Source: Thermodesulfobacteriota bacterium (GTDB taxonomy: Bacteria; Desulfobacterota; Desulfobacteria; Desulfobacterales; SURF-7). Taken from it: a DNA stretch of 64,000 nt. The notes below the pieces were generated by a model. The model saw only the letters and a list, made by a program, of their open reading frames with translations, ran no database searches and was not told the DNA's origin. The stretch lies in assembly GCA_049320885.1 (NCBI GenBank), contig JBMORA010000001.1, positions 178,622 to 242,621 of the forward strand. Reading direction: 5' to 3'. Shown piece after piece: positions 42,723 through 46,514 of this stretch (the stretch's first letter is position 1; every line of letters starts with the position of its first letter). Made by a program: the position numbers and the translations under genes.

Positions 42723-45700
42723 TTATTGCCGGGACGATTCCCGGGTGTCGGCTTTCCGTTGGGAAACAATGGATTCACCGATTTTCTCCGCCGACAGGCC
42801 GAAAAGATCCGTCGTCGGCACCATTTCCAGGCAATCGTCTTCCCAGGATACGCTGTTTTCCTGAACGATATTCTTGATATGCTCGTATTTACCGCCAAGG
42901 GCCTTTATCTTGACGCCCAATGGAATCTGTTCCTTGAAACCGATATGGAGCAGCAGCAGAAATTCCATCAGGTTGGGAGATGCGCTGGATGCGGAAATGA
43001 TCGGGATCACGATGATGCTGCGGTCATCCTTTCTGCCTTTGCCGATGTAGACATTCCCCTGCCGCACAATGATCCGCTTGGTTCCCTTCAGCAGGGTGTC
43101 CTTTTCAACGCGGGAAGGCAAGGCAGCCAAAACGCCTTCCTTTTTCAATACATGGATGCGGGTCTCATCGGTCAGTTCTCCCAGCTTATCCAACCCGTCG
43201 ATGCGATACAGAATCGCACCTTTGATCTGTTCCACGACGCCCTGCAAATTCTTTAACACCAGCACATTTTTATTGGTCAGTTGAGCGGTCTTGAAACCAA
43301 AGGTCAAAAGGGTGTTGAACAGGATCCCCTCCACTTTTTCACTGATCCGGCTGGTTCCCACGGTTACGGTCTTGGCTTGATGCTTGATGGCGTCGATGGG
43401 ACGTGCCATGGCGTTGATGGCGTCGTTCAGGCAGGAAAAAAGGGTATTCAGCATGTTCAGGGCCGTCCCCTTGACATGGAAATCGATTTCAAAATCGGCC
43501 ACCGGCAAACGGCCGGCAAGATACTTCAACAGCAGGGTCAAATCCGCAGCCTTTTGGATATCCATGGCGCTGGATAACCGCTTTTCCTGCTTTTTCATCC
43601 GGAAAGCACGGTAAAACTCGACAATTTTTTCCCGGAAGGTTTTCTCCAGCACAATTTCAAAGACATCCAGGCCGGTTGCGGCGAACTGCTCGATGGTTTG
43701 CTTGAGATCCTCCCGGGCGTCATGCAGGAACCGCGAGCCGTCGTGAATCGCCAGGGCCGCGTAGTAGCCCCACAGATGTCCGACCAATGTGTTGACAATG
43801 GGCGAAAGGTGTTCCCCCACGATGGGGACATGAAATACATCGGCCGCGTAGGGTGCAAAGCGATCTTCCCCTTCATCGGCGATCACGACAGGCAGGGCTT
43901 TGTGAGCTTGGAAAATAGCGGTGTCCTTGATGATATCACCGATCACGGTACCGCGGGTCCCCGCGGCGCAGACAATGATCAAAGGCTCCGAAGACAAATC
44001 GATGTGCTTTTTATCCTCCACGTAATCCGTTGAAATGGTTTTATAACAGAGTTCACTCAGCTTGATGCGGATTTCATCCGCCGAGGCTTTGTTGGGCCCG
44101 CTCCCCACCGCCGCCCAGTAAGTCTTGGTGACCGCCAGGCGGTTGGCCGAGGCCTCGATGGTGTCTTTCATGGAAAGTATTTTTCGCATCTGGACCGGCA
44201 AGGCCAGTAACTGCTGGATCTCGGAAGTGATAAAATCCGGCCCCCTTCTTTTTTTGATTTCGGCCAACAGCAAACCGAGAACGGCGCCGGCCACAATCTG
44301 GGAATAAAAGGCCTTGGTCGAAGCCACGGACATTTCGATATCCCGCCCGCTGCTGGTGTAAATCACCCCGTCGACCTTGAACGTGATATCCGAATCACGC
44401 CGGTTGACAATGGCCAGGGTATGTCCGCCTCGCTCCCGGACCATATCCACGGTTCGATTGGTATCCGTCGTTGTTCCGGACTGGGTGATGGCGACCATCA
44501 GCATATCGCTCAACTGATCCTGACGGTTGCTTTTTCCCAGCCTGAAGCCGCTCATTTCGGAAGACTTCATGGCATCGATCTGGATTGTCGGGTCATCCAG
44601 GTAATAGCCGAGGATATCGGCACAGGCCTTGGCCGCCACCCCCGCCGTCCCCTGGCCTACAAAAAAAATCCGCCGGATACGGTCTTCCTGGAGCGCCTGC
44701 CTGATTTTCACCGGCACGGCGGATTCATCCAACGAAATGGCCAACTGGTCCCCGCTGTCCCGTCTGATCTTCCAGCGATTCTGCAGCGTCTTTTCCACCG
44801 ATACGGGCGATTCGGATATTTCTTTCAGGAAATAATGCGGATATTCCTGACGATCGATGTCCCGGGAAGTGATTTCCGTATGTTTGATATCCCTTTCGCT
44901 CAGCTCGATGGGGGTTCCGTCATAATAGAATCCGGTGATGCCGTCCAGCTTGCCGCTGGAGGCTTGATCCAGGATGAAAATCTGGCCCTGGGTTTTACCC
45001 TTTCTTCCGTCGATGATTTTTTCGCCGTCCAGTTTCAGATAGTCGGAGGTTTCCTCGACGAAACCGTACACCTCGGAAGTCGGCATGTAATGATCCTCGG
45101 CAAGCCCTACGAATACCGCCTGGCCGCTACCCCGCTGAGCCAGGAACAATTTACCCGGAAGCAAATCCGTATGCATGGAGATGGCATGGGAGCCTTCGAA
45201 GTCGTTGACCGCCAGCCGGAAGGCCTCCGGAACGGAATAACCGGCGCGGATGTGGGTTTCAATTTGGAGCGGAATAATTTTTGTATCCGTCGTGACTTCT
45301 TCCTGCAGTTCCCCCGATGTTTTTTCAAAAGCCGTTTTGAGCTCCAGGTAATTGTCGATATCACCGTTCAGGCAAACATGGATCGTACCGCTGCCGGACG
45401 GTTTCTTTTCGGCAACCCGGTTGTCCACCGGGTGACAATTGGGTTCGGTTATGGCTCCGACGGAAGCCCAGCGGGTGTGGGCGATGATGCTGCGATGGAT
45501 GATGGGCAGACCGGCGAGAACGGCCAGAATCCGGTCTTCCCGGATTTGCCTTCTCAGAAAGCGGATATTGTCCCCCAGATGCCCGATCTCGGCCGCTATT
45601 TTGTACACCAATGTAAGGGTGACCCGAAGGCCTCCTTCCTTCGTAACGGATTCACGGACACTGACGCTGCGGTTCATCAGCACCGGCTGCGCCGCCCGGG

Positions 45701-46514
45701 CCTCGAGCGCCGCGCCTGTTTCAAGGCCGGCGACGCGTTGCTGGAACTCGGCATAGACCGGCCCGTCCACCACAAACAACAGTGAAATCCCGGCCGAATC
45801 TCTTCCACGGACCTCCAGCCGGTCGACGCTGTTCAGGACCGCGTTGAGTTCCCGGTAGATTCCGATGGCCTGATCGGTTTCCTGCACACCGGCGGCATCC
45901 ATCAGATACCGGACCCGCTCGATATTTCCCTGTACTTCCCAGCGCAGAAACCAGGCCGCGTCCTTCAGGTCTTCAATCCGGCGTAGAACCACTTCCGTAT
46001 CGGCCGTGTCCAACTCCCCCACACGTTTAGCCAAAATCGCCGTTTCCGTCTGGACGATCTTCTCCACCCTCGCGGTTATCCCGGCGAGTCGGCCCTGAAT
46101 CGCCTCATCCCGGAATATTCCGACGAACGCCTGCTCCCGTTTCAAAATGCGGATCTTTTCCAGCAATTCCCTGATCCGTGCTCCGCCACCCAAATAGTGC
46201 TCCGCAAAGGATTTTTTTCCATCAAAATCGGAAAATCCCGACTTTTCCATGACCGTTGTCAGGTCAAGCAATTCCGCAACGGAAAACTCCCCTACGGTCC
46301 CGATTTTCCGCCTGAAAGAAATGATCCCCGCCAAACCGCAGCAAAGGGTAGCGGGCCGAAACGGAAACAGGATCAGCGCCCTGCCTGTAAACCCCTTGGG
46401 GACTTTTCCGAAAAAAACCGCCGTGGACAGGACGGCTCCCATGAGCCGGCCTAACGAAAGACACAACTCTTCGGACTTTTTTACGATAGGTCGTATCATT
46501 ATCATTGCGCTCAC
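42723..46514 (-). CDS. glmS: Enlarged glutamine-fructose-6-phosphate amidotransferase-like protein (GATase-2 plus two SIS domains)
   Basis: [59 protein letters not shown]. Confidence 0.78.

Follow-up and report, generated by a model that had tools for sequence, protein, structure and literature searches.

GlmS controls entry into UDP-GlcNAc synthesis, on which peptidoglycan and lipid A depend. The enzyme is almost universal and serves both as a textbook case of ammonia channelling and as a drug target. The bacterial enzyme (E. coli GlmS; PDB 1jxa, 2j6h, 4amv, 3ooj; TIGR01135) combines a class II glutaminase with a two-SIS isomerase domain. In eukaryotic GFAT1, feedback acts at the protein level with UDP-GlcNAc as the regulatory molecule; the extra loop of GFAT is short, its Cys is N-terminal and the chain ends at the C-tail. 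The ligand is bound in the GFAT1 structures 6svp and 6r4g. Bacillus subtilis PurF and glutamate synthase (GltS) carry a propeptide in front of the catalytic Cys (11 residues in PurF, about 36–42 in GltS), which is removed. We know of no GlmS with a propeptide, nor of a strict motif in the propeptides of PurF and GltS. The self-cut Ntn hydrolases glycosylasparaginase, gamma-glutamyltranspeptidase and cephalosporin acylase keep both chains after cleavage; they are members of other Ntn families, with a Thr or Ser nucleophile and a long alpha chain.

The window analyzed here is a 64,000-nucleotide stretch of a contig from a Thermodesulfobacteriota bacterium of the order Desulfobacterales. It contains a GlmS-like ORF of twice the canonical length, with 1263 aa when read from GTG and 1258 aa from the ATG at codon 6; the latter matches the gene call of the collection (P0002). 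The GTG (46514–46512) overlaps the final codon and the stop of the upstream kdnB gene (ATGTGA, stop 46513–46511), as a preliminary description of this DNA had stated. In the same frame, ATG also occurs at codons 4, 6 and 25, and TTG occurs at codon 17. The same description had placed the nucleophile behind a 58-aa leader and had noted an insertion of about 150 aa, a second one before AKTVTVG and about 210 aa following this motif. All of these are present. CCGLAG occupies residues 58–63, which positions the nucleophile at Cys59, and none of the codons ahead of it (ACC CTT TGC) is a start codon. A ten-residue motif found at 23–32 in E. coli GlmS lies at 233–242 here, so that about 150 aa are inserted before it. 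According to the alignment with three canonical GlmS sequences, about 112 aa (925–1036) are inserted ahead of the C-tail. AKTVTVG (1047–1053) is followed by 210 more aa, whereas the three canonical sequences end 5 residues past the C-tail lysine. The earlier count of three extra segments was too low, since an additional insert of about 84 aa (252–335) interrupts the glutaminase domain and the linker is also lengthened (506–560). The GlmS core is thus accompanied by a 58-aa leader, four modules that are inserted or appended, and 210 aa beyond the C-tail lysine.

Every segment, leader and inserts included, is kept in the 120 closest homologues (1217–1327 aa), which shows that the extra segments are not due to chance and that the architecture is no oddity of one genome. 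A lack of leader and inserts in orthologues, which the preliminary description had named as a refutation, was thus not observed. Pfam searches of each extra segment alone, with E up to 5, yielded chance-level rows only (E 0.15–0.44), in line with the earlier view of these domains as uncharacterized, and no Rfam family matched the window. GFAT1 (PDB 6r4e, 6svp and others) is likewise a GlmS-type enzyme with extra sequence, but the structure and sequence matches revealed nothing equivalent to the leader, insert 1, insert 3 or the C-terminal extension.

The catalytic core could be aligned with E. coli GlmS residue by residue (PDB 1jxa, E 6e-20). For the glutamine site, C59, R348, W349, N383, G384 and D410 correspond to the E. 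coli Cys, R73, W74, N98, G99 and D123. The C, RW, NG and D positions are invariant in 41/41 aligned members of the leader-bearing clade. The sugar-site residues S349, T352, K485, E488, H504 and K603 are retained as S679, T682, K818, E821, H837 and K1048; in TQSGTTTDT, a Thr replaces the Ser that the family consensus has at the position of GlmS S347. The C-tail is the most conserved segment, having a mean identity of 0.91 among the 120 closest homologues and 0.79 among the diverse members, and its pattern D-x-x-x-HQAK-x-x-TVG-x-x-R is invariant in 47/47 of the latter. Pfam recognized the SIS domain (E 5e-13). TIGR01135 gave 226.5 bits over residues 330–921, below the curated cut-off of 418 that all 14 of 14 control genomes pass, and we therefore place the long form as a separate clade beside this equivalog, not within it. 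Foldseek with the N-terminal model retrieved 1jxa (E 1.3e-10), then GFAT1, PurF and GltS; PurF (1gph, 1ao0) and GltS (1ofe, 7mfm) share the glutaminase fold at E 2e-8 to 4e-6. By these alignments, the ORF is a predicted GlmS-type enzyme with a nucleophile that is not N-terminal and with all catalytic residues of both domains, which supports this part of the preliminary description.

Table 1. Features of the long-form GlmS gene and its neighbors (window coordinates; residues of the 1263-aa chain)
Feature	Position	Strand	Remarks
Whole long-form GlmS ORF	42723..46514	-	1263 codons from GTG, plus stop 42723-42725; alternative ATG 46505, 46499
Leader, residues 1-58	46341..46514	-	conserved part ends directly at Cys
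Codon of Cys59, predicted Ntn nucleophile (= Cys1 of GlmS)	46338..46340	-	invariant in 41/41 aligned
Insert 1, residues 70-225	45840..46307	-	between first strand and the ten-residue motif; no Pfam match
Class II glutaminase core, residues 226-505	45000..45839	-	R348, W349, N383, G384, D410
Insert 2, residues 252-335	45510-45761	-	interrupts glutaminase core
Lengthened linker 506-560 and two-SIS isomerase domain 561-924	43743..44999	-	TQSGTTTDT 677-685, K818, E821, H837
Insert 3, residues 925-1036	43407..43742	-	between last isomerase helix and C-tail
Catalytic C-tail, residues 1037-1058	43341..43406	-	K1048 (= GlmS Lys603) in AKTVTVG
C-terminal extension, residues 1059-1263	42726..43340	-	alpha/beta, five-stranded sheet; PAS/GAF-like by weak fold matches
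kdnB orthologue (Kdo 8-oxidase)	46511..47632	-	stop overlaps GTG of long GlmS
kdnA orthologue (Kdo8N transaminase)	47672..48865	-	match to 5k8b
Upstream same-strand cluster	48852..52347	-	PBP-type transpeptidase 48852-50324; metG 50425-52347

The genome, 98.24% complete, was searched for a canonical glmS, a check that the preliminary description had proposed. None was found; the best match to the glmS model was the long form itself, and no match exceeded the cut-off. glmM is present (551 bits), while nagB and the glmS ribozyme were not found in this genome. Among 121 genomes of the order, the long form occurred in 111, a canonical glmS above the cut-off in 3, and neither in 7. Four of these seven are less than 85% complete; the other three are 94–97% complete, indicating that absence calls in draft genomes are imperfect. 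In a sample of the phylum (251 genomes), the C-terminal part of the long form was detected in 26 genomes and canonical glmS in 212, with an overlap of 0; the absence of canonical glmS was re-checked for 5 of the 26. The two forms were mutually exclusive in every genome sampled and hence have the same apparent genomic role. The long form is probably the housekeeping GlcN6P synthase: judging from gene content, it is the only candidate for GlcN6P supply in a nearly complete genome that has glmM and lacks a detectable nagB. By record names, it also exists in lineages of at least three other phyla, and the best 80 of the 469 loci from a scan of contigs all carry Desulfobacterales-type names. A whole order of abundant sulfate reducers appears to run the GlcN6P step with a double-size enzyme. 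The curated models miss this form, so equivalog-based pathway reconstructions may score GlcN6P synthesis as missing. Its NCBI record name is just 'SIS domain-containing protein'. Our literature searches found no paper on a long-form GlmS, the matches listed being unrelated by title and abstract or mentioning no more than the Kdo8N names.

The tree places the leader-bearing proteins in one clade within a monophyletic long family, and this topology indicates a single origin of the leader; one leaderless protein (P0141) nests within the leader clade. Long forms that have no leader and begin Met-Cys exist in other lineages, including Planctomycetota, Acidimicrobiia and Ca. Schekmanbacteria. Of 50 diverse full-length representatives, about 35 start with MCG. 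In two genomes of the same phylum, which also lack a canonical glmS, the frame opens only 13 or 2 codons before the Cys.

In the present gene, 58 codons precede Cys59 (53 from the ATG at codon 6). The primary product therefore has, at the gene level, the Ntn-proenzyme trait of a peptide directly preceding the nucleophile. Leader residues 1–24 vary in sequence and length, and residues 25–58 follow the conserved pattern [VI][YF][FW]G[KR]-x4-VP-x2-[SA][IV][VI][FL]FP-x5-[LF]-x. The Cys59 equivalent is present in all 120 homologue N-termini. FP-x5-[LF]-x-CG, with a P-to-C spacing of 7, was found in 119 of the 120 closest homologues and in 5/5 divergent members of the phylum. At P2, 111 of the 119 have Leu or Phe, and P1 (residue 58) is variable, with nine residue types. 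Unlike the propeptides of PurF and GltS, the last 26 residues of the leader are strongly constrained. The N-terminal AlphaFold model was obtained for a 555-aa construct, whose numbering plus 5 gives the residue of the 1263-aa chain. In construct numbering, the model contains a helix at 2–24 and strands at 27–30 and 41–44; pLDDT is 75–82 for the first 30 residues and below 50 for 45–57. These 13 residues lie just before the Cys, and the model is therefore silent on cleavage-competent geometry. A propeptide that is simply discarded would need neither this degree of conservation nor such rigid spacing, and both would also fit a permanent structural or gating element.

The added modules were characterized through structure prediction. 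Insert 1 was modeled as all-helical, with two long helices of about 31 and 37 residues; insert 2 is likewise helical, and insert 3 is a predicted four-helix bundle. A wide VIA-align search matched generic four-helix bundles to insert 3 with Z values up to 9.2, under the meaningful level for helical bundles, and barely covered the C-terminal extension. The model of the extension had a pLDDT of 83. Its best fold match was the N-terminal sensor segment of mycobacterial L-GDH180 (7jsr_B; Z = 7.3 over 165 residues, rmsd 4.7), at a sequence identity of only 12%; GAF, PAS, LOV and Cache domains gave Z values of 5.4–6.3. All of these fall in the grey zone below Z = 8, where unrelated folds also score. 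L-GDH180 resembles the long form in that a five-stranded alpha/beta module is added to a core enzyme of nitrogen metabolism, and the authors of its structure describe the 7jsr segment as ACT-like plus PAS-type modules (PMC8175468). Foldseek of the C-terminal model against the PDB returned nothing at E 0.001 or better (best E 0.02), Pfam gave no PAS or GAF match on the extension, and ESM Atlas matched it to unnamed clusters only (best score 0.80). When the C-terminal 339 aa were searched against the representative library, the extension was seen only in long-form GlmS proteins and fragments. Its residues G1099, Y1103, G1127, G1144, K1146, G1160, D1163 and E1219 are invariant family-wide. The predicted fold suggests that the extension is likely a PAS/GAF-like domain tethered to the catalytic C-tail; because the fold matches lie within the score range of unrelated folds, its reading as a sensor, and any ligand, are conjecture.

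We estimate a probability of roughly 60% that the long-form GlmS is the sole GlcN6P synthase of the cell and is made as a proenzyme, whose leader is cut at Cys59. In the proposed mechanism, the free N-terminal Cys would hydrolyse glutamine, and ammonia would pass to fructose-6-P in the SIS domain, as in GlmS. Because leaderless relatives in the long family begin Met-Cys, catalysis would require the Cys at the N-terminus, and proteins of the leader clade would have to unmask it. We infer that the protein likely cuts itself at Cys59, most probably via an intramolecular N-to-S acyl shift at the 58–59 bond, as in other Ntn proenzymes. A motif held at constant distance ahead of the Cys suggests a structured precursor. 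The cleaved leader may remain bound as a small chain. By analogy with the two-chain Ntn hydrolases, the mature enzyme would then retain a structured segment that precedes the nucleophile, which would explain the conservation of the leader. Provided that the leader is a genuine propeptide, the long form would be, to our knowledge, the first GlmS made as a proenzyme and a clean system to study how Ntn amidotransferases unmask their nucleophile.

The two helical inserts, the four-helix bundle and the C-terminal PAS/GAF-like domain are presumably regulatory or architectural. Because the C-terminal domain is joined directly to the catalytic C-tail, a ligand bound to this domain could gate the sugar site as well as the ammonia channel. 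Such gating would amount to protein-level feedback, in a role that the glmS ribozyme or GlmY/GlmZ plays in other bacteria. A more far-reaching version of this model is tentative, and we consider it doubtful as a whole. It holds that the long form is an old, separate, multi-phylum lineage with a built-in metabolite sensor, and that the Desulfobacterales enzyme is a zymogen whose leader blocks the glutaminase until self-cleavage and is then kept as a small subunit. Either the cleavage or the position of the C-tail would be controlled by a ligand via the C-terminal PAS/GAF-like domain, with the resulting protein-level feedback replacing the glmS ribozyme or GlmY/GlmZ. Should the C-terminal domain prove to be a sensor, GlcN6P feedback would have a third, protein-based solution.

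The fate of the leader can be explained in other ways. It might never be removed, leaving the glutaminase inactive or regulatory and GlcN6P to be made from free ammonia, or it might be a reversible plug moved by a signal. The strict motif, the fixed spacing and the well-modeled first 30 residues are what a permanent structural element would show. Isolated GlmS isomerase domains can use ammonia, albeit poorly, and the habitats of sulfate reducers are frequently ammonium-rich. Nevertheless, the invariance of all glutamine-binding residues in the leader clade points to selection for glutamine hydrolysis, and the Met-Cys start of the leaderless relatives indicates that the chemistry of the family needs a free N-terminal Cys. 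We know of no class II amidotransferase that hydrolyses glutamine with a blocked Cys. An unremoved leader is thus unlikely, and the ammonia-dependent variant raised in the preliminary description is disfavored by the same glutamine-site residues. Cutting by a separate cellular protease is less probable still: the conserved motif with its Leu or Phe at P2 could serve as a recognition site, but P1 varies, no conserved protease gene neighbors the enzyme in the 20 loci examined, and Ntn enzymes generally self-process. A misplaced start, with translation beginning beside the Cys, would turn the leader into an annotation artefact. For this we see hardly any chance, as the sole argument for it is that class II amidotransferases generally begin with Met-Cys. 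The nearest in-frame ATG, GTG or TTG upstream of Cys59 is the ATG at codon 25, and the leader motif is fixed at the protein level in 119/120 homologues. A later start cannot explain such a leader, and this candidate was rejected.

The substrate was also questioned, as the preliminary description had suggested that the enzyme is coupled to the Kdo8N genes or acts on another sugar phosphate. The identity of the neighbors was confirmed: KdnB aligned with the characterized Shewanella enzyme 5k8c (E 3e-153 over 354 residues, about 63% identity by hand count) and KdnA with its counterpart 5k8b (E 6.8e-164 over 390 residues), making them true orthologues. A specialized amidotransferase tied to these genes, instead of a general GlmS, would suit the overlap of the start with the kdnB stop, the presence of kdnA and/or kdnB immediately upstream of the gene in 9 of the 20 loci from relatives, and the score below the glmS-model cut-off. 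However, neither gene adjoins the enzyme in the other 11 loci, and this genome has glmM but no second GlmS candidate. None of the 26 genomes with the long form is among the 212 with canonical glmS, and all residues for fructose-6-P binding and ring opening are retained. The mutual exclusion and the intact fructose-6-P site make another sugar phosphate a very improbable substrate. Of the earlier interpretation, the GlmS-type assignment and the leader stand, whereas the ammonia dependence and the other substrate are unlikely. The kdnA/kdnB link is real but facultative. The holB–ricT–metG housekeeping cluster lies upstream in 14/20 loci, and the metG side is the neighbor most often conserved among the relatives.

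The minus strand of the window carries, at 42723–46514, an uninterrupted GTG-initiated ORF of 1263 codons. The coordinates and lengths reported for it in the preliminary description proved correct on re-check. The GTG (46514–46512) lies within the string ATGTGA, where it overlaps the final codon and TGA stop of the upstream gene. Further in-frame starts occur at codons 4, 6, and 25 (ATG) and at codon 17 (TTG); the version in the public collection (P0002) has 1258 aa, consistent with initiation at ATG codon 6. The codon of Cys59, the predicted nucleophile, lies at 46340–46338, and the codons just before it (ACC CTT TGC) include no start.

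Pfam recognized a SIS domain (E = 5e-13) and, weakly, a class II amidotransferase domain. The NCBIfam glmS model matched residues 330–921 with 226 bits, well below its cut-off of 418 bits. A phmmer search of the PDB aligned residues 324–921 with residues 48–589 of E. coli GlmS (1jxa, E = 6e-20) and, weakly, residues 226–246 with residues 16–36. Counting along this alignment, with the positions checked on it, yielded equivalents for the functional residues of E. coli GlmS from R73 to K603. The AlphaFold model of residues 6–560 had a pLDDT of 82.5, and its top Foldseek match was GlmS (E = 1.3e-10), followed by human GFAT1, PurF, and glutamate synthase. Additions to the core were mapped by alignment to three canonical GlmS proteins from relatives' genomes. 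The three extra segments noticed earlier are present, but their count was too low, as the alignment revealed more of them. None matched a Pfam family, even in single-segment scans with E-values up to 5 allowed.

Features of the long-form GlmS (residue numbers) and of its neighborhood (nucleotide positions in the window)
Feature	Location	Strand	Basis or remark
Leader	residues 1–58		alignment to canonical GlmS
Insert 1	residues 70–225		alignment; modeled helical, two long helices among them
Insert 2	residues 252–335		alignment to canonical GlmS
Lengthened linker	residues 506–560		alignment to canonical GlmS
Insert 3	residues 925–1036		alignment; four-helix bundle in model
C-terminal addition	210 residues beyond C-tail motif AKTVTVG		alignment to canonical GlmS
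Equivalent of E. coli R73/W74	R348/W349		1jxa alignment
Equivalent of E. coli N98/G99	N383/G384		1jxa alignment
Equivalent of E. coli D123	D410		1jxa alignment
Equivalent of E. coli S-x-S-x-x-T loop	TQSGTT 677–682		1jxa alignment
Equivalent of E. coli K485/E488	K818/E821		1jxa alignment
Equivalent of E. coli H504	H837		1jxa alignment
Equivalent of E. coli K603	K1048		1jxa alignment
Rrf2-family regulator	42226–42678	−	directly downstream of long GlmS, same strand
kdnB and kdnA orthologs	46511–48865	−	PDB matches
PBP transpeptidase-domain protein, 490 aa	48852–50324	−	between metG and kdnA

The long-form GlmS is a large family and no local oddity. A word-index search gave 7454 scored proteins with E-values of 0.001 or less; the best 120 of these were 1217–1327 aa long, 59–100% identical to the window protein, and carried Desulfobacterales, Desulfosarcina, or Thermodesulfobacteriota source names. 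Their mean identity to it was 0.91 in the C-tail, 0.75 in the isomerase domain, 0.68 in the C-extension, 0.58 in insert 3, and 0.30 in insert 1. The C-terminal 339 aa gave 401 matches at E 0.001 or better among 1.84 billion representatives. No other architecture stood out among the best 150 of these, which were ~1100–1260 aa long or shorter, the shorter ones being taken to be mostly fragments. Some leaderless members were named by source as Planctomycetota, Candidatus Schekmanbacteria, or an Acidimicrobiaceae MAG. A one-genome-per-species scan returned 469 loci encoding a relative, and the best 80 all bore Desulfobacterales-type names, a cultured Desulfobacter latus strain included. A literature search found no paper on a long-form GlmS, although most subscription journals lay outside its coverage, so this is not proof of absence.

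We put the probability that the long form is the cell's GlmS at about 85%. The preliminary description had called for a check for a canonical glmS elsewhere, and none was found: in the own genome (98.24% complete), nothing exceeded the cut-off of the glmS model, whose best match was the long GlmS gene itself. The same genome contains glmM (551 bits); nagB and a glmS ribozyme were looked for and not found. Among 121 genomes of the order, row counts gave the long form in 111, a canonical glmS in 3, and neither in 7. In 251 genomes of the phylum, a canonical glmS scored above the cut-off in 212, and the long-form C-terminal part was present in 26, which belong to the order or to nine other families. 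None of these 26 had a canonical glmS (best E-values 1e-52 to 1e-71, or no match), and the absence was re-checked in five. The phylum sample contained no exception to this exclusion, which is a pattern rather than a statistic, since the sampled genomes are related and hence not independent.

The sole canonical genes of the order sample (G007:C301, G082:C370, and G104:C154; loci L008–L010) each lie on a 4–8 kb contig. Searching with the C-terminal part detected no long form in G007 and a long-form fragment in G104. As this fragment is on another contig than the canonical glmS, the canonical copy of G104, at minimum, may have entered the bin as a contaminant. Of the seven order genomes with neither form, four have a completeness below 85% and three reach 94–97%; in the latter (G040, G061, and G120), two different queries detected neither gene, owing perhaps to assembly gaps or to a third solution. 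As a separate observation, the glmU model matched the own genome at G000:C3:4297–5022 (−) with its N-terminal (uridyltransferase) half only (positions 2–240, 288-aa frame), and no full-length GlmU exceeded the cut-off there. A separate gene may supply the acetyltransferase half, or this half may have been replaced.

A motif that runs from the leader into the nucleophile was present in 119 of 120 close homologs: F/L-P, five variable residues, L/F, one variable residue, and C-G. The Pro-to-Cys spacing was always 7, and the L/F position held L or F in 111 of the 119. The upstream part reads [VI][YF][FW]G[KR]-x4-VP-x2-[SA][IV][VI][FL]. The nucleophile was preceded by Cys (69), Ser (24), Asn (14), or other residues (12); position 58 is thus variable, and Cys59, not Cys58, is the conserved Cys. 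The same Pro–Cys spacing was kept by five divergent members belonging to other families of the phylum, and ~35 of 50 full-length diverse representatives started with MCG. In two genomes from one additional family of the phylum, the stop-to-stop frame leaves room for no more than 13 or 2 codons ahead of the Cys, and the codon next to the Cys encodes Leu; canonical glmS is absent from these as well. We ran FastTree on 61 long forms together with 3 canonical proteins, restricted to columns with an occupancy of 90% or more; the long-form sequences came out as a single clade on a long stem, with every leader-bearing protein in one sub-clade. Accordingly, the inserts and C-extension are ancestral to the family, an N-terminal Cys was the original state, and the leader was gained once. 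One leaderless, MCG-starting Planctomycetes MAG protein (P0141) was nested among the leader-bearing ones, which could reflect leader loss, transfer of the gene, or an erroneous start call.

The catalytic inventory, the lack of a second GlmS candidate, and the leader conservation are shown by the analyses or by the sequence itself. Because class II (Ntn) amidotransferases need the free amino group of a first-residue Cys for glutamine hydrolysis, their chemistry implies that the leader would have to be removed in the leader clade. In the simplest route, the Cys59 thiol would attack the 58–59 peptide bond. We consider cleavage of the leader reasonably likely. Propeptides precede the catalytic Cys in B. 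subtilis PurF (11 residues) and in glutamate synthases (36–42 residues), and the 58-residue leader would be their predicted counterpart; we know of no propeptide in any GlmS. More speculatively, since the motif is strict, the cleaved leader might remain bound, a conjecture modeled on two-chain Ntn hydrolases, whose small chain stays in place. The model gave the leader a helix (construct residues 2–24, pLDDT 75–82) and two short strands, with pLDDT below 50 for the 13 residues preceding the Cys; it excludes the C-terminal 700 residues, where the partner of the leader may lie.

The model of residues 925–1263 (pLDDT 83) showed a five-stranded alpha/beta domain in the C-extension. The C-tail loop, which has to occupy the isomerase site, was predictably of low confidence in this isolated part. 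Foldseek had no PDB match reaching E 0.001; its weak matches were to LOV, GAF, and PAS domains and to 7jsr_B, a large glutamate dehydrogenase. VIA-align of these candidates gave Z 7.3 for model residues 139–331 against 7jsr_B 175–361 (165 residues aligned, rmsd 4.7) and Z 5.4–6.3 for the C-extension against GAF, PAS, LOV, and Cache domains, a range also reached by unrelated folds, so the PAS/GAF-like assignment is tentative. The 7jsr paper describes ACT-like and PAS-type modules in the N-terminal segment, proposed as metabolic sensors (PMC8175468). In 47 diverse members, G1099, Y1103, G1127, G1144, K1146, G1160, D1163, and E1219 of the C-extension were invariant, and S1134, R1135, and P1171 nearly so. 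This polar and basic set would suit an anionic ligand. A ligand-sensing role is possible, and we rate it a little below even odds. In GlmS, the C-tail shuts the sugar site and forms part of the wall of the ammonia channel; being tethered to it, a sensing C-terminal domain could, more speculatively, shift the catalytic C-tail.

The two upstream genes are close orthologs of Shewanella KdnB (5k8c, E = 3e-153, ~63% identity by count) and KdnA (5k8b, E = 6.8e-164). We compared 20 loci of the order sample, picked for long contigs, with genes labeled by BLASTP against the window proteins. The stable genomic context of the long GlmS is a housekeeping cluster, genes of holB–ricT–metG lying upstream in 14 loci. 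Directly upstream were kdnA and kdnB in six, kdnA alone in two, kdnB alone in one, and neither in 11. The coupling to Kdo8N genes suggested earlier thus holds for nine loci but not for the other 11, so the link is frequent but optional. To our knowledge, Kdo8N has so far been described only in Shewanella; given the close orthologs and their recurrence in nine loci, the LPS made by these sulfate-reducer-type bacteria may likewise contain 8-amino-Kdo. Of the 20 loci, only that of the same-genus genome retained the downstream Rrf2 regulator. The gene of the 490-aa PBP-type protein overlaps the kdnA start by 14 bases. Its product scored far under all curated PBP models (highest score 108 bits, cut-off 455), and a homolog occupies the same place in nine of the 20 relatives' loci.
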